From: a virus
Virus record (IMG/VR): IMGVR_UViG_3300045988_075126
Span: 64,001-128,000 of that record
Length of the DNA stretch: 64,000 bases
Strand: one strand, 5' to 3'
Part shown: positions 1,145 to 58,876 of the stretch, in pieces
How positions within the stretch are numbered: position 1 is the first letter of the stretch
Layout: the number at the start of each line of letters is the position of its first letter
Made by a program: the position numbers and the translations under genes
Notes under the pieces: generated by a model
Databases searched by the model: none
The model's input: the letters and a program-made list of their open reading frames with translations, nothing else
Told to the model about the DNA's origin: nothing

Positions 1145-1179
1145 TTATATAAAGTGAGTCACACAAAAACTGAAAAATT

Positions 1180-2533: not shown

Positions 2534-2556
2534 CGAGTCGGCACTCGTAAAACGGT
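2534..2556 (+). promoter_or_regulatory. 5'-UTR hairpin CGAGT-cggc-ACTCG + TAAAACGGT (leader element L1)
   Basis: 18 nt upstream of ATG 2565; identical 23-mer at 16603-16625. Confidence 0.5.
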
Positions 2557-2564
2557 TTGAGGAT

Positions 2565-2903
2565 ATGACTACTTCAATTAAGAACAAGATGAGAAAGGTA
2601 ATGCAGTTGGCACATAGAGCCTATCAGTTGAAATCAAGTTCAATGTCTTGGGTTGAGTGCTTGAAACAGGCTTGGCAGGTCGTAAAGCTTGAGGCAGCGA
2701 TGAAGACCAAGGTGGTAGAGTTCTTCTTTATGAAGATGAATGGTGAGGTAAGACAAGCCTTTGGTACGCTCATCCAGAGTCACATTGACTACACTCCAAA
2801 TGGTACTGGTCATGCAGCATCAAGAGATTGCATCCGCTATTGGGATGAAGAAAAGGGCGCATGGAGACAATTCAAGGCTTACAACTTTTTGCGAGTTGCA
2901 TAA
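2565..2903 (+). CDS. conserved phage protein, paralog of 16851..17186
   Basis: Clear aa similarity over full length (..MSW.ECLKQAWQV.KL..VVEF.F.KMNGE.RQAFGTL..SHIDYTPNG..). Confidence 0.7.
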   Translation: MTTSIKNKMRKVMQLAHRAYQLKSSSMSWVECLKQAWQVVKLEAAMKTKVVEFFFMKMNGEVRQAFGTLIQSHIDYTPNGTGHAASRDCIRYWDEEKGAWRQFKAYNFLRVA

Positions 2904-5457: not shown

Positions 5458-5607
5458 AGTTAGAATAATCTAATCGTGAATGATAAGATTTCTATTTTCC
5501 AAATCTTCAATGAAACTTTGAGAACGTTCATAAGACTTTGGGATTTCATTTTACCTACTCTTTCAGGTTTTCGGCATCCCCTTTGTAATCTCTCTTTGAT
5601 TACACTG

Positions 5608-7700: not shown

Positions 7701-10700
7701 ATGGCAGAACTAGAATTTAACCTCCGAGCGAATTTCTCCCAAATCAAGGAAGCCAAGGAAGAGCTTGAAAGATTGCGTGGTGAATTGTTGAAGACTTCGA
7801 GAGCGACAGATAAATCTGTGGTTCAAGACCTCACGGATAAATATGCTGAACAAAAGCGTAAAGTAACCGAATTAAGCGAAGCAATGGGTCGTTATGCTAT
7901 GGTAACGAGCAGCGATTATGCAAAGAAAATGCAATCTTTGACACGGGAAGTATATGCTTTTGAATTGCAAGCCGACTCGTCCAGGCGAAAGATAGAGAAG
8001 CTTTCCAATGAGATAGCGAAGATGGAAAGCAAAATGCGCAGAGGTGGTCTTGATGTAGGAACAAGCGCAATTCTTTCTGATAACATATCATCCGGCTATG
8101 CCTCGTTGAAAGACGAAAAGGCTAGACTGGAGAATCTTACTGGATTAGGCAAGCAAGCGAGACAAGAGTTACAGAATATGCAAACGGAATATGCTAAGTA
8201 TTCGGGTTCTGTGTCTCCTGCTAAGGATATGACCAATCAAATGACAAATGCATTTGCCCAAATGATTGCTGAAATGAAGCAAGCTCCTACAGTCGGTGAA
8301 GGTATTTCCTCATTGTTTGGTCGTTTGAATGGTGACGCAAGACAACTAGCTATGAGTTTAGTTGGTGGTCTGGGCTTTGAACAATTGGCTGAGCACATCT
8401 TTAACGTTCGCTCTCAATTCCAACAATTGGAGATTTCTTTTACAACAATGTTGGGTAGTGAGCAAAAGGCTGGTGCGCTTATGGATGAACTTATCCAAAC
8501 TGCTGCTCGCACACCTTTCAACATGACAGACGTTACTGAAGGCGCAAAACAACTCTTAGCATATGGAATACAAGCCAATGAAGTAAATGACACCTTGGTA
8601 CATTTGGGTGATATAGCTTCTGGCCTTAATATTCCTTTGTCGCAGCTTGTTTATTTGTACGGCACGACCATTTCGCAAGGAAGAATGTTTACAATTGATT
8701 TGCGTCAATTCATGGGTCGAGGCATTCCGATGGCCGAGACCTTGGGGCAAATTATGGGTAAGACCGTATCCCAAGTGCAAGAGGCTGTAACGAAAGGTGA
8801 AGTCGGTGCAGATCTTGTGAAAGAAGCGATTGTGAAGATGTCAAGCGAGGGCAGCAAATTCGGAGGCTTGATGAACAAGCAAGCCGAAACCCTTCAAGGT
8901 CGTTGGTCGAACATAGAAGATACGATAGACCAAGCAATCAACTCTATAGGACAAAAGACACAAGGAATCTTTGGAACAGGTCTTGACTTAATATCTTCTC
9001 TGATAGAGAATTGGGAAACTTTGGTTAAAGTTATTGGTTCAGCGGCTGTTATGGTCGGAACTTACAAAGCTGGCTTGATGGCAGCGGCAAGCATTCAGAA
9101 GGTTCAGAATGCTATGACAATGGCATCAATCACAGAGGAACTTGATTCTAAGTTAGGAGAGGCAAGAGACCAAGAAAACAACTTCCGTTCCTTAAATGGT
9201 AAAGACACCAAGCAGTATCGGGCAAATAGATACAAGGCTTTAGGTGATGCTATTGCCGATACGTCAAACATTGGTGATGATAAGACAGAGGAAATCGTTT
9301 CAAAGCAAATTGAGATGGCGAGGAACGAGGGTCTTATCACCGAGCAGATGGCTCAACAACTCCAAACAAAGCGAGATTTATTGGTTGCCCAGCAAAAGGC
9401 TGCTGATAATGAGCGCATGGAGTATGAGAACGCAAAGCGGACAAAAGAAATAGAAGAGGAAGCCGCACGACAAAAGAGAGCCGATGCGGAAATGGCTGCT
9501 GAAATTAACGCAAAGGCTGCAAAGAAAGCCACTATAGACGAGGCTAATAATACTCCTTTGGGTAAGGCTATTCTTAACACAAATGCTATAGAGGAAAAGA
9601 AAAAACTGGCAGAAGCAAGCATCGAATTTGCCAAAGAAGAGGCAAGGGAACAACATGGAATTGTAGAGGAAATCGGTGCTCAAATCAAGAAGCAAGAAGA
9701 ACTTGTAGCCGCAAAAAAGGAGCAGGTAAAGTCTTCATACCAAGATGTGATTGATTTGGGCGGTTATGATGATGGCTTTGGTGATGATTTGAAATTACGA
9801 GACCAAGCAGTAAATCAATATGTGGCTGAGCAGCAAAAGTTGAACGACCTCAAACAGAAGAGTTACGAGGCTTCTCAAAAGGCATATCTCGCAGACCAAA
9901 AAGTATTGGGTATGCAAGAAGACCTTAAAGGTGTAACCCAAGAGCTTAATCAAGCTATAGAGGAGGAAAACCGAATCTATGGAGAAACTGGCTCTAATGC
10001 GGACGAGATAAACAAGCTGGTGAATGAGGGGGTTGCGGCAAAAGAGGGCGATACGGCTGCGGTTAATGCAAATACTACTGCCAAACAAGGGAATACGACA
10101 TCTGAGAATGCGAACTCTGCGGCACGAAACGCTAATGCCGGAGCTACTACAAGACAAACTGCATCAAATGCAGCAAACACAACCACAGAGAATGTTAATT
10201 CAGCGGCTACCGGAGCGAATACGACTTCTCAAAACGTGAATACAAGTGCGAAGCAACGCAATTCCTTTGTTACAAGCATGATGTCAGTTGGTACAAAGGC
10301 TGCGACCTTGGCTCAATCGGCTTTTTCGTGGGCAACCAATGCGTTGACAACGAGCTTGCGTAGTCTTTGGGCTACTATGGTTTCTAATCCATTGACTTCT
10401 GTCATTACTTTAGTGAGCACAGCTATTTCTGTATTCTCTTTGTTTGGTGACGAAACGGAAGATGTTGCGACCAAGACTGCAAACATGGGGAATAAAGCAT
10501 CTGAGGCAAGTGCTAAGGTTCGTTCCTTGTTTGCTATCTTGGGGGCCGGCAAGGATGCGGAAAACCACAAAGAGACAATAGATGCATTGAAAAGCGCATA
10601 CGAAGAGTATGGCGTAAAGCTCGATGAAACAATTATGAAGTCCGAAAACGAAGCTTCAAAGGTACAAGAGCTGATGAAGCATAAGGAAGATTTGATAGGC

Positions 10701-13700
10701 GTTATCGAAGAGCAAACTATTGCCATGGAACATCAAAATGCCGTACAGCAAGCGTATGACGATTATAATACCAGTAAGAATTCCGCAAAGATGGATTTTC
10801 AGGAGGCAACTAAAGGCGTGCTTACAAGTGATCAAGCTGCGTTTGCCACCATTGCGGTAAAGGATGAAGATTTAGATAAACTTATCGAATTAAGCAAGAA
10901 ATATAAGGAAGTTAGAGACAATTCGGAAGAAATGTACAAACTCAACCAGCAGTATGCTTCTGTCATGGATAAGGTTTCCGAAGGTGTAATGAGATATTAT
11001 AAAAACCTTCATCTTTCTGATGAACAAATAAGAAGTATAACGGGAGCAACAAATGAATACATTTCTACTATTACCCATTCAAAGGAAGCGTTAAATGAGA
11101 GGGTTAAATCTGAGAACAAAGCTAAAGTTGCAGCGGAGAATGCTAGTAAAGAGGTAAGAAAGCTTTCAGATAGTACAAAGGAGAATGCCGAACGTAACAG
11201 GTTGGCGAAAAAGTCATTTAAGGAAATGGCTGTTGAAATGGATGAAATCCGAAAGATTTGTGAAAGAACTTATCATATGAAAATCAAGGTGGACTATGAC
11301 GATAAGTCATTGCCCGCTTGGATTAAGAATATGTCTCAGAGCCAAAGGGCAGGAAGTGCAAGAGCAAGATTGGCATGGTTGAAAACCCATAAGCCGGGAG
11401 ATACAACAAAGAAGTTTGGTGGAACTAATAAGAATTATTGGACTATTTATAATGAAAGCCGAGGGCTTCAATACAAGGGGGAAAAGGTAGAGAGTACACC
11501 AACCGAGACTGAGGCTCAGAGAAAGAAACGTCTCGCTGCTGAAGCTAAGAAAAAACGTGAAGCGGAACGTGCGGCAACTAAGGCAGAGCGTGAAGCAAAT
11601 CAAAAGGAAACGATGGCTGGTAATAAGCGCAAGGCAGAGGAGGACTATGCTAAGTCTATTTCTTCCTATTCGGAGAAAGCCAGTGATGAGTTGTCAAAGC
11701 GAAGAACGGAATTGATTAAGAATGAGACCGAAAAGGAGATTGCTCAAATTAATATGTCTTCAGACAAGGAGAAAAAGGCTATAGAGGATTCGATTGACAA
11801 ACTCGTTGAGGCTAAGAAGAAGAAAGACCAGATTGTTTGGGTAAATTCGGGAAAAGGTCGTAAAGCCAGCATGTGGAAACAGGGTAAGTCCGATGCGGAA
11901 TACCGCAAAGAGGTATTGGGCACACAAATGGTTGACGACAAGGGTAATCATCTTGGGAAGACCATTGGACAGAACTCTGAAGACCAAATTGCCTTGATTG
12001 AGAAACAGAGGCAATTAAAGCTGAAGGAAATCCAGCAAGCGGAGATAAAGGACATGTTGGATTTCATGAAGCAATACGGCAGCTTAGAACAACAACGTTA
12101 TGCTATTGTAAAAGAATACACGGACAAGATAGACCTTGCAAGAGAAAAGGGAGATACTTTTGGTGCAGCGAACGCTGAAATGGAGATGAACGACCAGTTG
12201 AAGAAGTTGAATTTTTCGGATTTCAAGGATTCTATCAATTGGGATGTTGTCTTTCAGGATATGAACCGATTGAGTATTCCTTATCTTGAAGACCTTCGCA
12301 AGAAGATGAAGGAGTTGCTTGGTTCGGGTACGTTGGAAATTGATGACATGAAAACCGTATCTGACCAAATCTACAAGATTGATGATGCGATTTCCGAGCA
12401 GAAGGATAGATGGGGATTGGTTAATGATGCAGTCCGTGAACACCGTAGGCTTATTGATGAGGCGAAGGATGCGCAAGACCGATTGGCACAAGCTAGAAAG
12501 GTGGAGTTTGATGCCAAGGCTGACAACATGAGCCAAAGGAGAAAAATCCAAGGTGTGTTTGCGGAAAGTGGGATTAATATAGATACCAGTAATATTACTT
12601 CTGCCAATAAGGACAGACTAATGGGTTCTACCAAAAATCTCAGTGTAAGCCAAACGGAGAAGTTACGTAAGCTTTTTGATGATTTGGCGGTTTCAGAGGT
12701 TAAGGTTGGAAAGGCAACAAAGGAAGTCGGAAAGGCGCAGGAAGAAGCCAAGGTAAAGCAGGATGCCGCAAAGAAGAGCTTGCACGATACTATCGAGGAA
12801 TGGGCTGAGGGTTTGAGTAAAATCCAAGAGAAACTAAAAGACCTTCCTGGGTTAGTCGATGCTTTGGGTCTCGGAAACACAGGCTTTGGTAAAGCTGTGA
12901 ATAACGGAATGGATGCATTGAACAGTGGAACACAAGCCTTTTCTGATTTTGCAAGCGGAAACTACATAGGCGCAGCTATGAATGGAATAAAAACCATTGG
13001 TTCGTTGGGCAAGATGTTCGGTATTGGTGGAGGTAATGGTGCAGAAGTTGCGAAGAAAACTGAAGAGCTGACCGAGAGCAATGACAGATTGATGTATTCC
13101 ATTGATAAGTTAAAAGAGTCTATTGACAAATCTTCCGGTTATACAGCCGTCAGCAACTATAATGCTGCTTACGATGCTCAAAAGCAGGTTAACACCCAAA
13201 CGATGGATATTCTCAAAACACAAATGGGGTATCATGGTGCACACCATTCAAATGCTTATTATTGGAATCTTTCTGCACAAGATTATGCGGCAATCAATAA
13301 GACTTTGGCACAGCAATCGGCAGTCAGAGGCGGTTATACCAATTCTTCGATAAACAAGGTTAATTCCTTGGAGGATATATACAAGCTCACTCCAGAGCAG
13401 ATGGCTGACATTCGTACACATAATGCGGATGTATGGAAGAACATGACCGACCAAGGCAAGTATGATAAGACGGAATATTGGGAGCAATATACAGAACTGG
13501 CGGGAAAACTAGAGGAGTTGACGGAGCAAATCAATGAGAATTTGACTCAAACAACCTTTGATTCGATGAAGAGTGACTTCATAAACAATCTTATGGATAT
13601 GAGCAAGTCTGCAAAGGATTTTTCTAATGACTTCACTACAATGCTCAGCCAGTCGATGCTCAACTTCGCTTTGGGAGACCTTATGAATAAAAAGCTTAAG

Positions 13701-14234
13701 CCTCTTTATGAGAGCTGGGCAAACAAGATGAAGGAGAATGGAGGAAGGCAGCTCACGCCAACCGAATTGAATAATCTTAAAGAAGAGTATGATAAGATAG
13801 TTCAAGAGGGTTTGGCTATTCGTGATAATATTGCTGATATTACGGGTTACAAGCAATCTTACGAGCAGTCCGCTTCTTCCGGTTCTTTTGAATCAATGAG
13901 CCAAGATACAGGAGAAGAGTTGAATGGTCGTTTCACAGCGGTACAAATTGCTACAGAGGGAACGTATGAGGAAACAAAGCTCATAAATACCAAGTTGGAT
14001 GCTATTGCGGCTCGTGATGGTGGCACAGAGGGTAGCTTATTAACGGCTAGCGTGAATACCATTATGGGTAATGTAGGTAATATATGGGTTGCCGTTGATG
14101 AGGGAAGAACCATTCTTGCACAAAGCTTGATGTACTTGCAGTCGATAGATGAGCGACAAGAAAGCTGGAATAAGCATATTTTACTGATGAGCCGTAATCT
14201 TGACACTATCAAAAACAAGGTGGATAGGTTGTAA
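7701..14234 (+). CDS. tail tape measure protein (2177 aa)
   Basis: Size, coiled-coil composition, TMP core-like FNMTDVTEGAKQLLAYGI..LGDIASGLNIPL..LVYLYGT. Confidence 0.85.
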   Translation: MAELEFNLRANFSQIKEAKEELERLRGELLKTSRATDKSVVQDLTDKYAEQKRKVTELSEAMGRYAMVTSSDYAKKMQSLTREVYAFELQADSSRRKIEKLSNEIAKMESKMRRGGLDVGTSAILSDNISSGYASLKDEKARLENLTGLGKQARQELQNMQTEYAKYSGSVSPAKDMTNQMTNAFAQMIAEMKQAPTVGEGISSLFGRLNGDARQLAMSLVGGLGFEQLAEHIFNVRSQFQQLEISFTTMLGSEQKAGALMDELIQTAARTPFNMTDVTEGAKQLLAYGIQANEVNDTLVHLGDIASGLNIPLSQLVYLYGTTISQGRMFTIDLRQFMGRGIPMAETLGQIMGKTVSQVQEAVTKGEVGADLVKEAIVKMSSEGSKFGGLMNKQAETLQGRWSNIEDTIDQAINSIGQKTQGIFGTGLDLISSLIENWETLVKVIGSAAVMVGTYKAGLMAAASIQKVQNAMTMASITEELDSKLGEARDQENNFRSLNGKDTKQYRANRYKALGDAIADTSNIGDDKTEEIVSKQIEMARNEGLITEQMAQQLQTKRDLLVAQQKAADNERMEYENAKRTKEIEEEAARQKRADAEMAAEINAKAAKKATIDEANNTPLGKAILNTNAIEEKKKLAEASIEFAKEEAREQHGIVEEIGAQIKKQEELVAAKKEQVKSSYQDVIDLGGYDDGFGDDLKLRDQAVNQYVAEQQKLNDLKQKSYEASQKAYLADQKVLGMQEDLKGVTQELNQAIEEENRIYGETGSNADEINKLVNEGVAAKEGDTAAVNANTTAKQGNTTSENANSAARNANAGATTRQTASNAANTTTENVNSAATGANTTSQNVNTSAKQRNSFVTSMMSVGTKAATLAQSAFSWATNALTTSLRSLWATMVSNPLTSVITLVSTAISVFSLFGDETEDVATKTANMGNKASEASAKVRSLFAILGAGKDAENHKETIDALKSAYEEYGVKLDETIMKSENEASKVQELMKHKEDLIGVIEEQTIAMEHQNAVQQAYDDYNTSKNSAKMDFQEATKGVLTSDQAAFATIAVKDEDLDKLIELSKKYKEVRDNSEEMYKLNQQYASVMDKVSEGVMRYYKNLHLSDEQIRSITGATNEYISTITHSKEALNERVKSENKAKVAAENASKEVRKLSDSTKENAERNRLAKKSFKEMAVEMDEIRKICERTYHMKIKVDYDDKSLPAWIKNMSQSQRAGSARARLAWLKTHKPGDTTKKFGGTNKNYWTIYNESRGLQYKGEKVESTPTETEAQRKKRLAAEAKKKREAERAATKAEREANQKETMAGNKRKAEEDYAKSISSYSEKASDELSKRRTELIKNETEKEIAQINMSSDKEKKAIEDSIDKLVEAKKKKDQIVWVNSGKGRKASMWKQGKSDAEYRKEVLGTQMVDDKGNHLGKTIGQNSEDQIALIEKQRQLKLKEIQQAEIKDMLDFMKQYGSLEQQRYAIVKEYTDKIDLAREKGDTFGAANAEMEMNDQLKKLNFSDFKDSINWDVVFQDMNRLSIPYLEDLRKKMKELLGSGTLEIDDMKTVSDQIYKIDDAISEQKDRWGLVNDAVREHRRLIDEAKDAQDRLAQARKVEFDAKADNMSQRRKIQGVFAESGINIDTSNITSANKDRLMGSTKNLSVSQTEKLRKLFDDLAVSEVKVGKATKEVGKAQEEAKVKQDAAKKSLHDTIEEWAEGLSKIQEKLKDLPGLVDALGLGNTGFGKAVNNGMDALNSGTQAFSDFASGNYIGAAMNGIKTIGSLGKMFGIGGGNGAEVAKKTEELTESNDRLMYSIDKLKESIDKSSGYTAVSNYNAAYDAQKQVNTQTMDILKTQMGYHGAHHSNAYYWNLSAQDYAAINKTLAQQSAVRGGYTNSSINKVNSLEDIYKLTPEQMADIRTHNADVWKNMTDQGKYDKTEYWEQYTELAGKLEELTEQINENLTQTTFDSMKSDFINNLMDMSKSAKDFSNDFTTMLSQSMLNFALGDLMNKKLKPLYESWANKMKENGGRQLTPTELNNLKEEYDKIVQEGLAIRDNIADITGYKQSYEQSASSGSFESMSQDTGEELNGRFTAVQIATEGTYEETKLINTKLDAIAARDGGTEGSLLTASVNTIMGNVGNIWVAVDEGRTILAQSLMYLQSIDERQESWNKHILLMSRNLDTIKNKVDRL

Positions 14235-16064: not shown

Positions 16065-16337
16065 TCAATGCACTTTTAAATTGATTTCTACATTCATAGG
16101 CTTACCACAATGAGGGCAGACTAAAGAAGTGCCCTGCTGGTCGTTTTCGAAGAACGAACAAATACTTATCTGCATAGCATCTGCAAGCCTTTGAAGTGTT
16201 TCAACTGTAGGGTTGGCACTATTCACTATTCGAGACATAGAAGACTGTTTTACCTCACGCCCCTCTATCTCCTGCATTTTGGCTCTTAATGATTCCAGAG
16301 TCCATCCATTATCTTTTATCGTTTTCTTTATATTCAT
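16065..16337 (-). CDS. XRE-type HTH regulator with C-terminal Zn-ribbon
   Basis: HTH region + CPHCGKP; start moved to ATG 16337 because -7 box lies at 16372-16379. Confidence 0.7.
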   Translation of the reverse strand: MNIKKTIKDNGWTLESLRAKMQEIEGREVKQSSMSRIVNSANPTVETLQRLADAMQISICSFFENDQQGTSLVCPHCGKPMNVEINLKVH

Positions 16338-16371
16338 ATATACATTACTTATATGTGTTATTAATTTGGTG

Positions 16372-16402
16372 CAAAGATACAAAAAGTTATTGAAACAACA
16401 AA
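16372..16402 (-). promoter_or_regulatory. Bacteroidetes-type promoter (TTTG-19-TAtcTTTG) minus strand
   Basis: caaagata 16372-16379, caaa 16399-16402. Confidence 0.55.
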
Positions 16403-16486: not shown

Positions 16487-16533
16487 ATATCGCATAAAAG
16501 TGATATTTTATTTTGTTATATCACATAAAAGCG
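16487..16533. promoter_or_regulatory. two 16-nt direct repeats ATATC(G/A)CATAAAAG(T/C)G, candidate operators
   Basis: 16487-16502 and 16518-16533, 31 nt phase, overlapping promoter 16512-16542. Confidence 0.4.
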
Positions 16534-16542
16534 TTATCTTTG
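16512..16542 (+). promoter_or_regulatory. Bacteroidetes-type promoter (TTTG-19-TAtcTTTG)
   Basis: Upstream of early cassette B. Confidence 0.6.
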
Positions 16543-16602
16543 CATCGTGATTAAGAAACAAAGGTCACAATAACATTATTAATTTAGTTGAGGTTGCACC
16601 TC

Positions 16603-16625
16603 CGAGTCGGCACTCGTAAAACGGT
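16603..16625 (+). promoter_or_regulatory. leader element L2 (CGAGT-cggc-ACTCG + TAAAACGGT)
   Basis: Identical to 2534-2556; 18 nt before ATG 16634. Confidence 0.5.
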
Positions 16626-16633
16626 ATAGCAAT

Positions 16634-16816
16634 ATGACTACTTCAATGATAAGAAGAAACTTGATTCAGAAGTTCGTTATGATAGAGTTCGTAAGCAACA
16701 GGATAAACACCCAAAAGGACGTTGATAGAATGTTGAATATGATAACAATAAAGCTCAATATGAACAACGATGAGGCTAAGAGCTTCTTGCGTGAGAGCAT
16801 CGGACTTGCAAAGTAA
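16634..16816 (+). CDS. hypothetical protein (60 aa)
   Basis: First 14 nt ATGACTACTTCAAT identical to start of 2565..2903 but rest unrelated. Confidence 0.45.
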   Translation: MTTSMIRRNLIQKFVMIEFVSNRINTQKDVDRMLNMITIKLNMNNDEAKSFLRESIGLAK

Positions 16817-16850: not shown

Positions 16851-17186
16851 ATGGCTACTACATTTAAGAATATGATGAGAGAAGTGATGAATATGGCACA
16901 CAGAGCCTTTCAGCTTAAAGGTGCTTATATGAGTTGGGCAGAATGCTTGAAGCAAGCTTGGCAGGTTATCAAGCTGAAGGCTCGCATGAAGAAGCAGGTC
17001 GTTGAGTTCTATTTTCAGAAAATGAATGGTGAGATTCGTCAGGCTTTCGGCACTTTGATGGAGAGTCATATTGACTACACTCCAAACGGCAAGGGTTACG
17101 CTTGCAAGGACTGCACAAAGTATTGGGATGAAGTTAAGGGCGAGTGGAGACAATTCAAGAACTACAACTTGATTAGAGTTGCTTAA
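16851..17186 (+). CDS. conserved phage protein, paralog of 2565..2903
   Basis: Full-length aa similarity. Confidence 0.7.
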   Translation: MATTFKNMMREVMNMAHRAFQLKGAYMSWAECLKQAWQVIKLKARMKKQVVEFYFQKMNGEIRQAFGTLMESHIDYTPNGKGYACKDCTKYWDEVKGEWRQFKNYNLIRVA

Positions 17187-17526: not shown

Positions 17527-17550
17527 CGTGAGGCACACGCTAAACTGCAC
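17527..17550 (+). promoter_or_regulatory. leader element L3 (CGTG-aggca-CACG + CTAAACTGCAC)
   Basis: Intergenic, 42 nt before ATG 17581; closing pair C-G instead of G-C. Confidence 0.45.
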
Positions 17551-17890: not shown

Positions 17891-17916
17891 GGTGAGGCAC
17901 ACCGAAACAACTGCAC
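17891..17916 (+). promoter_or_regulatory. leader element L4 (GGTG-aggca-CACC + GAAACAACTGCAC)
   Basis: Directly after stop 17880; followed by TAtcTTTG-like box 17919-17926. Confidence 0.45.
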
Positions 17917-17953: not shown

Positions 17954-18031
17954 ATGGAAAGAAGAAGTAATGTGCAGCATCGTGCCACAATGGTTGGTCG
18001 TGCTGGCGAGGACAGAAGTCCTCCAAAGTAA
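17954..18031 (+). CDS. possible 25-aa Arg-rich peptide
   Basis: ATG..TAA read by eye (MERRSNVQHRATMVGRAGEDRSPPK*); may be non-coding. Confidence 0.2.
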   Translation: MERRSNVQHRATMVGRAGEDRSPPK

Positions 18032-18331: not shown

Positions 18332-19210
18332 ATGACATTAGAATTTAACAAAACTGATGTAAATGTAGAGGCTTTACCAGTAGTCTCAGAGTTCCTTAAC
18401 AATGAAAAGAGAGGTATTGAAGTTGTAGAGATTATCGAGCATGACGGCAAACAAGCCGTGAACGCAAGGGAGCTGCACCAAAAGTTGGGCAGTAAGCAAG
18501 ACTTTTCAACATGGATTAAAAATCGCATAGAAAAGTATGGATTCGTTGAAAATCAAGATTTTGAAGTTTTCCACAAAATTATGGAAAACTCAAATGGTGG
18601 TCGAAGTCGTATTGAGTATGCCTTATCTTTGGATATGGCAAAGGAGTTGTGTATGATTGAGAACAATGAGCAAGGTAGATTGTTCCGTAAGTACTTCATC
18701 GAAGTCGAGAAAGCTGCCAGAGTCAAGTACGAGCAGGAGAAGCTGGACAAGAAGGCTTCCGATTCCTTTGACATCAAGCTGAAGTGGTTGAACTTTCTTC
18801 CTGGTTATCTGAACCTCAGCGATGTTTCCAAATTGGCGATGGCTAAGAAAATTGCTGAACCATTAGGGTTGCCGACACCTGATTATGTGAGCGCACCGAA
18901 TGGTGCAAAGCATTCCGCTACGGAGTTATTGAAATCTCATGGTGTAGGCTTGTCTGCTCGAAAGTTCAATGAGTTGGCGGTAAAGGCAGGATTATTGAAA
19001 CTAAAAGAGCGCAAGGGTACGAACAAGGTACACAAGTATTGTGAGATTACCAAGAAAGGATTGGCTTATGGTGAGAACGACATCAACGAGAAGAATATGA
19101 ATCAAACACAACCACATTGGTATGATTCTAAATTTGGGGAGGTATTGGAAATCATCGGCTACAAGTCTTCCAGGCAAGTAGATATGTTTGCAAGCGGTGA
19201 GACACACTAA
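18332..19210 (+). CDS. phage antirepressor (AntA-like N-term, KilAC/ANT-like C-term)
   Basis: NARELHQKLGSKQDFSTWIKNRIEKYGFVENQDF signature. Confidence 0.7.
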   Translation: MTLEFNKTDVNVEALPVVSEFLNNEKRGIEVVEIIEHDGKQAVNARELHQKLGSKQDFSTWIKNRIEKYGFVENQDFEVFHKIMENSNGGRSRIEYALSLDMAKELCMIENNEQGRLFRKYFIEVEKAARVKYEQEKLDKKASDSFDIKLKWLNFLPGYLNLSDVSKLAMAKKIAEPLGLPTPDYVSAPNGAKHSATELLKSHGVGLSARKFNELAVKAGLLKLKERKGTNKVHKYCEITKKGLAYGENDINEKNMNQTQPHWYDSKFGEVLEIIGYKSSRQVDMFASGETH

Positions 19211-19242
19211 GACAACTGTAGTAATATTGATATATAATCGAG

Positions 19243-19280
19243 AAGGAGGGGAATGCGTGATGCACTCTCCTCTTTTTTTT
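19243..19280 (+). terminator. rho-independent terminator
   Basis: Imperfect GC hairpin followed by T8. Confidence 0.6.
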
Positions 19281-19339
19281 ATGGTGATAGTTTTTGTTTT
19301 TCACAATATAGATAAGTGTTGTTAAACTGAGTGCTAATT

Positions 19340-20772: not shown

Positions 20773-20827
20773 TTTTGTGCCTACATATATAATAAGCGTT
20801 AAAATATAAAAGAAATACATTAAATAA

Positions 20828-20869
20828 TTTGCATATTTCAATAATTCTTTGTATCTTTGCATCGTAATT
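20828..20869 (+). promoter_or_regulatory. Bacteroidetes-type promoter (TTTG-30-TAtcTTTG)
   Basis: Consensus boxes, but the 30-nt gap is longer than the usual 19-21 nt; upstream ACATTAAATAA motif. Confidence 0.65.
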
Positions 20870-20895
20870 AAGAAACAAGGTTACTAATTTTAAAA

Positions 20896-20919
20896 GGTGA
20901 GACACACCGTAAAAACTGT
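20896..20919 (+). promoter_or_regulatory. leader element L5 GGTGAGACACACCGTAAAAACTGT
   Basis: Stem GGTG/CACC, loop AGACA; 20 nt before ATG 20928. Confidence 0.55.
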
Positions 20920-20927
20920 GATTCGTT

Positions 20928-21149
20928 ATGAATACTAGATTGAGTAAGAAAGAGACAATGGTTTATGGCAACATCGGAGTGATGGCTGACGTAATCGGAG
21001 GTAATAAGTACTTCACTTTTGCAGATTTGTATGATTTCGATTTGGATAATACCAAGGATGAGTTGAAAGAAATATTAAATTCTTTGACCGAAAAGGGTTA
21101 TCTGAAGAGTTTTAATGATTTCGATAAAACTTATCGAGTTTTGAAGTAA
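20928..21149 (+). CDS. hypothetical protein
   Basis: ORF track. Confidence 0.55.
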   Translation: MNTRLSKKETMVYGNIGVMADVIGGNKYFTFADLYDFDLDNTKDELKEILNSLTEKGYLKSFNDFDKTYRVLK

Positions 21150-21195: not shown

Positions 21196-21217
21196 CGTGA
21201 GACACACGTAAAACTGT
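21196..21217 (+). promoter_or_regulatory. leader element L6 CGTGAGACACACGTAAAACTGT
   Basis: Compensatory C-G closing pair; 19 nt before ATG 21227. Confidence 0.5.
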
Positions 21218-41815: not shown

Positions 41816-41887
41816 ATGTTAACGTCAGCAAATTATTTGTTAGCAGTATTATAGTGTGTTAAAAGATAAAAGAAATACATTAAATAA

Positions 41888-41929
41888 TTTGCATGTTTCA
41901 AATATTCTTTGTATCTTTGCAATGTAATT
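41888..41929 (+). promoter_or_regulatory. Bacteroidetes-type promoter (TTTG-30-TAtcTTTG)
   Basis: Part of duplicated cassette; 30-nt gap between boxes, longer than the usual 19-21 nt. Confidence 0.65.
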
Positions 41930-41955
41930 AAGAAACAAGGTTACTAATTTGAAAA

Positions 41956-41979
41956 GGTGAGACACACCACAAAAACTGT
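41956..41979 (+). promoter_or_regulatory. leader element L8 GGTGAGACACACCACAAAAACTGT
   Basis: 21 nt before ATG 41989. Confidence 0.55.
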
Positions 41980-41988
41980 AATAAGAAA

Positions 41989-56877: not shown

Positions 56878-58050
56878 TTAAAAAAATGCATTTGTTAATT
56901 GTTTATTTCCACTCATTATTACCCACTTCCCTCTGCCGTTTTGGTCTAGCAATTTCAAGTCTTCAACTTTTCCGAATCTATCATAAGTACCGCAAAGGTC
57001 AACAAACCAAGGCTGTTTTCCTTTTGATAGTCTAAGAAGTCTTCCTACAACTTGATAGTATTGCGCTAAAGAGCGTGTTGGCTTTGCATACACTACAGTA
57101 TCTAACTCCGGATAGTCAAAGCCTACGACCAAGATTTGGCTATTTACCAGTACCTTAGTCTGCCCATTGCGGAAACGCTCGATGATAGCCTCACGTTCTT
57201 TAGGTGGTGTCTCTCCGCAGACCATTTCGCAGTTAGGTATGGAATAGGTCAACATCTGAGCCTCTTTAACGAACTTGGTAAAAACCAAGATGCCTTTACG
57301 TTGTCCACCTCGTTTCGGATTAAGTAATCTATTGACAACACTAACTAGCCATCCGTACAAATCTACACGTTCATATTCTTGCTTGACACTTTGGTCAGTG
57401 TAATCACGGCAAGTTGAATTGAGCTGCAAGTTTCCTTCGTTCCATTGTGGCGGTGGGCAAGAGTAATAGTTTGGCAGACAGATATATCCGTTCTTTGCCA
57501 TATCCTCAACTTGAACATAGTAAATAAGCTCCTTGAAAATCTTGTCTCGACTTCTTGTCAGAAACTTCAGTATGCTACCATAGTTCTGATAGGAATACAA
57601 GCGGAAAGGTGTTGCGGTTAAGCCTATGACCTTACTCTTTAATTTATCAAGAAACTCCTTATACATACCGGATTCAGGTTTCACTAAATGAACCTCATCA
57701 ATCAATATGTACTTGAAGTCAGTAAACAATTCGGGATGTCCTTTTACACTACCAATTGTAGCAAAAGTAACATCGCTGATTTCCTTTGATTTAAAACTAG
57801 CGGAATAGATGCTGGCATTATCAAATCCATAAGAACAATACTTCTTGTAGTTTTGTTCCAAAATTTCCTTAGTAGGAGAGAAAACAAGCACTTTATCCTT
57901 GAGTCTAGCAGCTATATCTGCCAAAATCAATGATTTGCCCGATGCTGTAGGGAGCACTTCCAGAGCGTTCCAGTTTTTCTTCTTATCCAAGAAAAACTCA
58001 ACAGCCTTCTTGCTTGCCTCTTCTTGATATGGTCTTAATTTAAACTTCAT
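56878..58050 (-). CDS. superfamily II DNA helicase (DEAD/DEAH, ResIII-like)
   Basis: PTASGKS, IDEVH, GLTATP, QVVGRLLR motifs. Confidence 0.85.
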   Translation of the reverse strand: MKFKLRPYQEEASKKAVEFFLDKKKNWNALEVLPTASGKSLILADIAARLKDKVLVFSPTKEILEQNYKKYCSYGFDNASIYSASFKSKEISDVTFATIGSVKGHPELFTDFKYILIDEVHLVKPESGMYKEFLDKLKSKVIGLTATPFRLYSYQNYGSILKFLTRSRDKIFKELIYYVQVEDMAKNGYICLPNYYSCPPPQWNEGNLQLNSTCRDYTDQSVKQEYERVDLYGWLVSVVNRLLNPKRGGQRKGILVFTKFVKEAQMLTYSIPNCEMVCGETPPKEREAIIERFRNGQTKVLVNSQILVVGFDYPELDTVVYAKPTRSLAQYYQVVGRLLRLSKGKQPWFVDLCGTYDRFGKVEDLKLLDQNGRGKWVIMSGNKQLTNAFF

Positions 58051-58135
58051 TTCACAAATAATATGAAATCACTTTTGTTACTATATAGGAATGCACAAGT
58101 CTTATGCATAACAAAAGCCTTTAGAGAAGACCTTA

Positions 58136-58158
58136 CAGTTTTTATGGTGTGTCTCACC
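58136..58158 (-). promoter_or_regulatory. leader element L9 GGTGAGACACACCATAAAAACTGT
   Basis: 24/24 identical to L10. Confidence 0.55.
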
Positions 58159-58770: not shown

Positions 58771-58803
58771 AATCTTTATCCTTTATCAAACCAAAAGTCA
58801 TAG

Positions 58804-58876
58804 TTGCTGCTGTGGGGGTCGAACCCACAACCTTTTTCCGATTTTGGCGGACGTTCTACCATTGAACTAAGCAGCA
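58804..58876 (-). tRNA. tRNA-like gene with aberrant anticodon arm (loop CCAAAAU, 4-bp stem)
   Basis: Perfect 7-bp acceptor, D arm with GG, T arm GTGGG-TTCGACC-CCCAC; C at position 33; long variable region. Confidence 0.5.

Follow-up and report, generated by a model that had tools for sequence, protein, structure and literature searches.

A recurrent pseudoknot-like leader element at a set distance from start codons in a human gut phage and in two bacterial phyla

The window analyzed here is a 64,000-nucleotide (nt) stretch of viral DNA (IMG/VR record IMGVR_UViG_3300045988_075126, positions 64,001 to 128,000). It belongs to a phage from the human gut that is siphovirus-like, as judged from a 2177-amino acid (aa) tape-measure protein (7701–14234) and an E-type major capsid protein. 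Further genes in the window encode an S24-peptidase repressor-like protein, Rad52, a helicase, ThyX, an amidoligase and methylases, and an unannotated sequence from human faeces, MT835576.1, is 94% identical to the window. Its promoters are of the Bacteroidetes type, with the box TAnnTTTGCA occurring 22 times against 5.3 expected and most of these copies carrying a TTTG about 20 nt on their 5′ side. Scattered over the leaders of this phage is a short element composed of a hairpin stem (P1), a loop A-G-N-C-A, an A-rich linker R-Y-A-A-A-A-A-C and a tail U-G-N′. The element appears, from comparison of its copies, to be an H-type pseudoknot of about 24 nt rather than a hairpin, the last three loop bases pairing with the tail to give a second helix (P2). 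This helix was overlooked in a preliminary description, which had modelled a hairpin only and had read the tail as a sequence box.

The window holds nine class-1 copies, two class-2 relatives and one divergent copy (Table 1), and all twelve share the strand of the surrounding genes. The pattern GTGAG-N-CACAC-N(2–8)-AACTG matches the window nine times where 0.01 matches are expected (100 shuffles), while the tail 8-mer AAAACTGT by itself is not enriched there (5 against 4.25 expected), so that the signal resides in core and tail together. With a covariance model made from 100 diverse copies, nine class-1 copies were recovered at E-values of 3e-7 to 8e-3, comprising the eight already known and a new one, 1153–1173 (+), that had been missed. 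At all ten coordinates cited in the preliminary description the reported sequences are present; the start given as 58136 is one base short, the true one being 58135, and the 24-mer at 58135–58158 (−) is identical to that at 62578–62601 (−). The class-2 23-mer has two exact occurrences in the window against 0 expected. The sequence listed earlier as a variant at 27677 does exist, but it is divergent, and since the covariance model missed it and only one homologue was found, it is at most a possible member. The earlier remark that the element does not precede the head operon is borne out by the leader at 29489–29527, which lacks it.

Hundreds of copies outside the window agree with the earlier proposal of a structural, strand-specific element with compensatory stem changes, and the covariation check suggested at the time, when carried out in homologues outside the window, found P1 pairing kept and loop base 3 (N) covarying with the base after the tail CUG (N′). 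The comparative sets were seeded by patterns fixing core and tail, with the base outside GTG...CAC left unconstrained in every database scan, and cover the matches listed only. Their sampling is biased and redundant, one human-gut dataset dominating the IMG/VR matches, and redundancy was reduced by counting unique contexts and distinct downstream gene families. Among 188 unique contexts without a Shine–Dalgarno (SD) sequence, the outer P1 position is paired in 175 (G:C 96, C:G 65, A:U 14), non-pairs numbering only about 10, and counted by distinct downstream gene family it is paired in 91 of 98 (G:C 42, C:G 30, A:U 16, U:A 2). The next pair outward is not maintained, which makes P1 a stem of four base pairs (bp), usually (G/C)GUG with CAC(C/G). 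In Firmicutes arrays, where neighbouring units were not selected by the search pattern, the inner P1 pairs are compensated around an AGACA loop (GGG/CCC, GAG/CUC, CGG/CCG, AGG/CCU, UGC/GCA), and 21 of 58 flanks hold three or more pairs in a row, compared with 4.7 when shuffled. Covariation extends to the innermost P1 pair (G:C 92, C:G 7), and since this pair abuts P2 there is no L2 loop.

The second helix is indicated by the loop. Its third base is A more often than G and G more often than U, and C occurs rarely. This position covaries with the base that comes after CUG, which is U in 101 of 119 copies with loop AGACA, either C (19) or U (22) in 41 of 52 with AGGCA, A in 11 of 14 with AGUCA, and G for the rare AGCCA loop, in all three tandem units of a single locus (L350). 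When the N:N′ pair is counted by gene family, 73 of 92 are Watson–Crick or G·U against 55.9 expected, a number reached in none of 20,000 permutations, and on alignment A1 six pair types are seen (AU 35, GC 10, UA 7, GU 6, CG 2, UG 2). The whole-structure covariation score is 0.39 against 0.10 after shuffling, and slid registers score far lower. The register would make A5:U and C4:G the other pairs of P2, in which all four bases show practically no variation; when loop variants (C4 to G, A5 to G) were scanned for, the matches were background, apart from a single Firmicutes unit that has a G·U pair. In the window the P2 rule is kept in nine of nine class-1 copies (six ACA/UGU, two GCA/UGC, one UCA/UGA). 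The predicted knot thus has a stem 1 of 4 bp, a loop 1 of 2 nt (AG), a stem 2 of 3 bp and an A-rich loop 3 of 6–9 nt, and this A-rich linker could run along the stem 1 groove, as happens in other pseudoknots of minimal size. What supports the knot is that the sequence recurs, that P1 and one pair of P2 covary, that strand and spacing are constrained, and that the element is spread across phyla.

Spacing was measured from the G of the tail CUG to the first start codon opening an open reading frame (ORF) of at least 40 codons. Over 226 unique viral contexts this gap has a sharp maximum at 9 nt (47 contexts) and 10 nt (34), and falls within 7–11 nt in 107; within the window the distance from tail to ATG is mostly 8–10 nt, shorter than the roughly 20 nt put forward earlier. 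The spacers between knot and start codon are A/U-rich. Most copies do stand ahead of an ATG, as had been noted, exceptions including the 19196 copy, which has none, and the 58135 copy, which sits 85 nt off. The position of the knot is fixed relative to the ATG and variable relative to the promoter. A TAnnTTTG box lies within 120 nt upstream in 134 of 251 contexts, compared with 7.8% of random windows, and the distance from box to P1 is either 5–19 nt or 35–44 nt, the longer one occurring behind a single conserved 5′ hairpin. The shorter spacing, found in 58 of the 251 contexts, puts P1 essentially at the 5′ end of the transcript. A typical leader hence reads transcription start, 0–12 nt or one hairpin, knot, 8–9 A/U-rich nt and AUG, and the knot often makes up nearly the whole 5′ untranslated region.

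Two copies of the element lie in a promoter-plus-leader cassette of about 125 nt that is duplicated, nearly identically, 21 kb apart before unrelated small genes, so the 20896 and 41956 copies are not mutually independent. The cassette resembles the mobile promoter cassettes of T4-type phages. Its 5′ hairpin is one instance of a second leader element at transcript 5′ ends, GUAA-uuaagaaacaagg-UUAC with a purine-rich loop, which is found at four sites in the window (Table 1), shows the compensatory change GUGA..UCAC at one of them (16547), and is widespread in related IMG/VR contigs.

Table 1. Positions of the element, its relatives and neighbouring features within the window
Feature	Position	Strand	Sequence and pairing	Model score	Context
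Class-1 pseudoknot (predicted)	1153..1173	+	P1 GUG/CAC only, loop AGUCA, tail UGA (U:A in P2)	21.4 bits, E = 0.008	6 nt before ATG 1180 of an HNH endonuclease gene
Class-1 pseudoknot (predicted)	17527..17548	+	P1 CGUG/CACG, loop AGGCA, tail UGC (compensatory G:C in P2)	23.1 bits	Starts 7 nt past upstream stop; ATG 17581 is 32 nt after its end
Class-1 pseudoknot (predicted)	17891..17914	+	P1 GGUG/CACC, loop AGGCA, tail UGC	33.9 bits	ATG 12 nt past its end opens a 4-codon ORF; next real ORF at 17970
Class-1 pseudoknot (predicted), orphan	19196..19219	+	P1 GGUG/CACU, loop AGACA, tail UGU	28.3 bits	Overlaps final codons (..GETH*) of an AntA-like gene; no start codon behind it
Class-1 pseudoknot (predicted)	20896..20919	+	P1 GGUG/CACC, loop AGACA, linker GUAAAAAC, P2 tail UGU	37.3 bits	8 nt from its end to ATG 20928 (73-aa ORF)
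Class-1 pseudoknot (predicted)	21196..21217	+	Swapped outer P1 pair, CGUG/CACG, loop AGACA, tail UGU	35 bits	Operon-internal, past a terminator-like hairpin; 9 nt to ATG 21227 (27-codon ORF)
Class-1 pseudoknot (predicted)	41956..41979	+	P1 GGUG/CACC, loop AGACA, tail UGU	39.7 bits	9 nt from its end to ATG 41989 (124-aa ORF)
Class-1 pseudoknot (predicted)	58135..58158	−		41.1 bits	Begins 10 nt past promoter box 58176(−), hence essentially at the transcript 5′ end; helicase ATG (58050) 85 nt downstream
Class-1 pseudoknot (predicted)	62578..62601	−		41.3 bits	9 nt before ATG of the first gene (62568..62287, 93 aa) of a leftward operon divergent from the S24-peptidase repressor-like gene; promoter box 62700(−) about 90 nt earlier
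Class-2 relative (probable)	2534..2556	+	P1 CGAG(U)/(A)CUCG, loop (U)CGGC(A), linker UAAAAC, tail GGU		Directly after hairpin GCUG..CAGC; 8 nt before ATG of a WYL_2/DUF2693 gene
Class-2 relative (probable)	16603..16625	+	23-mer identical to that at 2534		After a different compensated hairpin, GAGGU..ACCUC; 8 nt before ATG 16634 (60-aa ORF, then a WYL_2 gene)
Divergent candidate copy	27677..27719	+	P1 GGUG/CACC, 7-nt loop, linker with inserted hairpin GGGGUAAGACCC, tail AACUAGCAC		8 nt to ATG of the amidoligase gene
Promoter-plus-leader cassette	20798..20922	+	TTTG...TATCTTTG box 20852–20859, 5′ hairpin 20864–20884, pseudoknot		
Promoter-plus-leader cassette, second copy	41858..41982	+	Box 41912–41919, 5′ hairpin 41924–41944, pseudoknot		
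GUAA..UUAC leader hairpin	16547–16568		GUGA..UCAC		
GUAA..UUAC leader hairpin	~5580–5605	−			
Terminator hairpin, strong	~19240–19281				20 nt after the orphan copy at 19196
Near-perfect palindrome	58050–58135	−	ATGCATAAGACTTGTGCAT		Within the 85-nt helicase leader
WYL_2 gene	2565–2903	+			Heads an operon
WYL_2 gene	16851–17186	+			Heads an operon
Helix-turn-helix (HTH) gene	1958–2281	−			
HTH gene	16065–16382	−			
DUF805b RNA (Rfam)	5552–5584	−		42.7 bits (gathering score 35.6)	Leader 3′ of promoter box 5615(−), just 5′ of a small ORF
tRNA cluster	26543–26978	+			Five genes: Glu, Gln, Tyr, Lys, one without assigned type
tRNA-Phe	58803–58876	−	Unusual anticodon AAA		Apart from the cluster

Beyond the window, pattern scans of IMG/VR placed the motif in at least 118 stretches, on contigs of 20–220 kb and before many unrelated genes. 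When a single genome from each species was scanned, matches came from two phyla, Bacteroidota (Alistipes, Bacteroides, Parabacteroides, Prevotella/Segatella, Chitinophagaceae) and Firmicutes (Lachnospiraceae, Eubacterium, Blautia). In Bacteroidota the genes behind it include the cellular genes cysS (Cys-tRNA synthetase), that of a YicC-like endoribonuclease, ssb and a SIS-domain gene, as well as HigA-like and ParB-like genes of mobile elements. In Firmicutes prophages two to four units of 22–27 nt are arranged in tandem between a terminator and the SD sequence of a gene of about 210 aa whose product begins "..PMNLQLFAE", a start that resembles the Prp-cleaved N-terminus of staphylococcal phage scaffold and capsid proteins. 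The last of these units abuts the SD sequence (AACUG-AAAGGAG or AACUGGAGG), and N:N′ is often mismatched there. The loop and tail are the same in Bacteroidota and Firmicutes, and their sharing by two phyla and by cellular genes implies a universal partner; the presence of the element before cellular Bacteroidota genes and in Firmicutes arrays likewise argues against a regulator private to this phage. At these Firmicutes loci (L402–L518, for example L414 7720–7860) the arrays follow a conserved GCCCGAAGGC hairpin plus AAACUAC, and the gene upstream of the array ends in a conserved ..GGCGGTGATCC..ATCTCCC.. stretch.

Nothing in Rfam 15 overlaps the element in cmscan searches of the whole window, of two short slices and of eight Firmicutes loci, in keeping with the earlier statement that no described element matches it; matches elsewhere in these scans were tRNAs, one DUF805b and weak chance hits. 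No description of the motif was found in the literature searched, an absence that is no proof of its being undescribed, and the motifs from crosslinking and immunoprecipitation (CLIP) of RbpB are unrelated to it.

Class 2 is probably a relative of the class-1 knot, with two pairing registers fitting different variants. One class-2 relative (locus L283), with loop UGGCA and tail UGU, obeys the class-1 rule, and other variants (GGC/CGU, GGGC/CGA, CGGC/GGU) fit another register better. Class-2 elements are always preceded by a second, compensated hairpin, and they precede genes for WYL_2/DUF2693 proteins (Sm-like SH3 fold) that are divergent from HTH genes. The Rfam models DUF2693 and DUF2693-FD gave no match at E ≤ 1 over the whole window or at E ≤ 10 on 16500–16660. 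The two WYL_2 genes of the window are paralogous and stand in a cro-like position, a layout also seen in relatives at 57–70% identity; in some relatives (loci L602 and L604) IS605 OrfB/TnpB (Cas12f-like) genes are inserted a few genes 3′ of the WYL_2 gene. A related-locus search for WYL_2 returned only relatives of 97–99% identity. WYL_2/DUF2693 as a general binder of the element was rejected, a 57%-identical homologue having an unrelated leader, and is kept for class 2 only.

Taken together, strand specificity, two covarying helices, the AUG register, the unrelated downstream genes and the identity across two phyla point to an RNA signal that is read by a near-universal partner at the start of translation. 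The reading we favour, with middling confidence, is that the knot would act in cis as a translation-initiation or leader element, recruiting and positioning the ribosome while also capping the 5′ end. In Bacteroidota and their phages, which make no use of SD pairing, the knot ends 9–10 nt upstream of AUG, the place at the 30S mRNA channel exit that a helix between SD and anti-SD would otherwise occupy, and in the 226 contexts a structured element stands beside an unstructured start at a constrained distance, as a standby site or enhancer calls for. Beside an A/U-rich start region free of structure, the 30S subunit would thereby gain a folded docking or standby point, reached through S1 and/or the platform; docking would raise and position initiation, and the knot would also cap the mRNA 5′ end. 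Folding in vivo, contact with the ribosome or S1 and an effect on expression are what we infer here. Bacteroidota are described as having a sequestered anti-SD and mRNAs without SD sites (PMC7797042, PMC6847099), and the link drawn earlier between the element and start codons in a host lacking such sites holds. S1 has high affinity for H-type pseudoknots, the tisB standby site consists of a 5′ pseudoknot and a single-stranded stretch and depends on S1, and for the rpsO pseudoknot the docking site is the platform (PMC7708055). A bolder version, which we put forward only tentatively, is that the knot is a structural surrogate for the SD helix, a portable 24-nt "mini internal ribosome entry site" seated in the cleft of 30S platform and exit channel or on S1, which would give SD-blind Bacteroidota efficient initiation in the correct register. 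Gut phages would have multiplied it so as to outcompete the messages of the host, and Firmicutes phages would stack it as an enhancer before the SD sequence.

Several observations weigh against a role in initiation or against the fold beneath it. The motif also occurs in Firmicutes, where it adjoins a normal SD sequence, and to our knowledge S1 is not generally considered a driver of initiation in that phylum. Some window copies depart from the register: the 58135 copy is 85 nt from its gene, the 19196 copy precedes a terminator, the 17527 copy lies about 30 nt from its ATG, and the ATG behind the 17891 copy opens an ORF of just 4 codons. For P2 the covariation comes from a single pair, its remaining two pairs being invariant, and N:N′ is mismatched in about 20% of SD-less contexts and in most Firmicutes units abutting the SD sequence. 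The pattern seeding with core and tail fixed, and the biased sampling despite de-duplication, also count here, as does the insignificant stability of nested folds (z = −0.6 to −1.3, from a tool that models no pseudoknots). P1 is nevertheless present in minimum-free-energy folds, and insignificant z-scores are expected for so small a motif with such a tool.

Of the three functions offered in the preliminary description the evidence favours translation initiation, and a protein operator and a stabiliser remain as rivals. The operator model, which we consider unlikely, takes the knot as the site of a trans-acting RNA-binding protein of host, phage or mobile-element origin that would repress or activate a regulon of leaders, after the manner of T4 RegA or gp32, the MS2 coat protein, ribosomal-protein operators or multi-site CsrA. 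It would account for invariant loop and tail bases (A, G, C, A; AAC, U, G) that exceed the needs of pairing, for the many copies per genome before unrelated genes, and for the tandem arrays of two to four units in Firmicutes; the orphan 19196 copy with its terminator could then be a decoy, and among the phage's own products are two Sm-like WYL_2/DUF2693 proteins, with the class-2 variant present in the leaders of their genes. However, conservation across two phyla and before housekeeping genes demands a near-universal protein, and no candidate was found: no classical RNA-binding regulator, such as S1, KH, CSD, CsrA or Hfq, is among the best 25 of 41 Pfam families in a scan of 120 window ORFs, the 57%-identical WYL_2 gene has an unrelated leader, and WYL_2 is, going by its Pfam description, confined to Bacteroidetes, unlike the motif. 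Placement at the transcript 5′ end in 58 of 251 contexts speaks instead for a stabiliser or processing barrier against 5′-end-dependent RNases or 5′-to-3′ exonucleases, akin to miniature viral exoribonuclease-resistant RNAs or to the ompA/aprE 5′ stem-loops. The knot could be at or near the 5′ end from the outset or come to be there once the RNA upstream is cleaved off, and being so close to the start codon it would, with a ribosome bound, leave no exposed RNA in between. The 58135 copy, 5′-terminal yet far from its ATG, fits this model, as do the Firmicutes arrays, which follow a terminator and precede a gene with a seemingly highly expressed, scaffold-like product, and the orphan copy, which with its terminator could give a stable fragment. 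We give this explanation a minor chance too: the sharp register of 9–10 nt to the AUG would be needless, the operon-internal copies that keep it (21196 and 1153) would go unexplained, and a knot of 4 + 3 bp is small against known exonuclease-resistant RNAs.

Two further explanations appear far less probable. In one, the knot is a miniature riboswitch related to preQ1-I whose ligand would stabilise the loop–tail helix and so alter access to the start region. PreQ1-I riboswitches do have a P1 hairpin and an A-rich tail, AAAAAC, followed by three nucleotides that pair with the loop, and tandem aptamers are known for some riboswitches. Nonetheless, no match to the PreQ1 model (RF00522) was obtained at E ≤ 1 over the whole window or, for the 91 nt of 20850–20940, at E ≤ 10, the L2 loop and the unpaired C that reads the ligand are absent, and the genes behind the knot differ in function (HNH endonuclease, helicase operon, cysS, ssb, antitoxin, scaffold-like), none of them a queuosine gene; we therefore rejected a preQ1-like riboswitch on model score, the missing L2 loop and gene content. 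In the other, which we regard as similarly remote, the inverted repeat acts as DNA, as a repressor operator, a recombination site or a hairpin promoter, or the copies are inert duplicated promoter cassettes. GGTG-N5-CACC is a perfect inverted repeat, two copies sit inside the duplicated cassette, and one is intergenic beside the S24 repressor-like gene. Against this, orientation always follows the gene strand, the loop and one-sided tail are asymmetric, the loop–tail covariation has no rationale in a DNA duplex, copies keep a set distance from the ATG but vary in their distance from the promoter, and they occur in entirely different flanks and in two phyla. Mixed half-sites (GGTG..CACG) are almost absent, which indicates pairing within one strand and not two protein half-sites. 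Strand and covariation data thus largely refute a palindromic DNA operator and make the DNA-level element allowed for earlier unlikely.

Some neighbouring features deserve mention in their own right. The arrangement of the orphan copy and the strong terminator behind it is kept in related phages, some of them with a different upstream gene, and the pair could yield a stable 3′ fragment or a decoy RNA. The conserved palindrome in the helicase leader may be a hairpin or a protein-binding site. As for the tRNA gene without assigned type, ARAGORN gives it a four-base anticodon, 'tggt', and it may be a frameshift-suppressor-like tRNA or a miscall.

The initiation reading bears on how Bacteroidota choose start sites without SD sequences and on how abundant gut phages secure translation; a short portable motif at the position of the SD helix, in about a dozen copies per phage genome, makes this question directly testable. 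If the knot is an enhancer it would be a usable part for engineering expression in Bacteroides, and if it is a protein operator or an RNase barrier it would define a previously unseen post-transcriptional regulon in gut phages. Either way it is a candidate new RNA family absent from Rfam 15.

A leader pseudoknot near a ribosome-binding site is of a known kind; it is the combination of a fixed sequence of about 24 nt with this copy number, the −9/−10 register and the Firmicutes arrays for which we found neither an Rfam 15 match nor a description in the literature searched. Among known systems, preQ1-I (RF00522) is alike in being a very small H-type pseudoknot, 5′ of the ribosome-binding site, whose A-rich 3′ tail (..AAAAAAC..) places three to four nucleotides in pairing with the loop; the window knot differs in its 5-nt loop without L2 and in its many copies per genome. 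The luteovirus knots of beet western yellows virus (BWYV) and sugarcane yellow leaf virus (ScYLV), with a stem 1 of 4–5 bp, a loop 1 of 2 nt, a stem 2 of 3 bp and an A-rich loop 3 of 6–9 nt, have the same dimensions, from which it follows that so small a knot can be stable. They lie 3′ of a slippery site in coding sequence and serve −1 frameshifting, whereas the window knot is found in untranslated leaders. Lambda-type nut sites share a short hairpin with a 5-nt loop and a conserved box in early-operon leaders 3′ of promoters; they have no fixed start-codon register and number only two per lambda-type phage, and in the window element the box pairs with the loop. A nut/boxB site was rejected given the ATG-fixed position, the loop-paired tail and the lack of a recognised N-like gene in the Pfam scan, whose sensitivity is limited. 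Units of the ToxI type measure 36–45 nt, have a terminator and a toxin gene behind them, and stand in no set relation to start codons. Tandem pseudoknot repeats with A-rich linkers are reported for ToxI/CptI arrays, including phage pseudo-ToxI, in phages and Lachnospiraceae (PMC3475682). An antitoxin RNA of a type III toxin–antitoxin system (ToxI/CptI/TenpI), for which tandem repeats of 34–49 nt ahead of a terminator and an endoribonuclease toxin gene would be expected, was likewise rejected, the units being 22–27 nt long, mostly single (always so in the window), and in Firmicutes arrays followed by an SD sequence and the ~210-aa 'PMNLQLFAE' gene. The T4 gene 32 knot and the RegA regulon offer a phage leader pseudoknot or a short RNA operator near start codons with translational control of many early genes, but the gene 32 knot serves one gene and lies 40–70 nt upstream, RegA sites are unstructured, and both need a phage protein, while the window motif is also cellular. 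Related to the initiation role considered here are the folds that serve S1 standby or platform binding, tisB +42, rpsO/S15 and the SD-less rpsA leader, in all of which a folded 5′ leader element (an H-type pseudoknot in the first two) beside a single-stranded stretch promotes or controls 30S binding without a strong SD sequence. These are single-gene, lineage-specific systems with no shared sequence, whereas the predicted window knot has a fixed sequence, reaches up to about 12 copies per genome, spans two phyla and keeps its 9–10 nt distance from the start codon.

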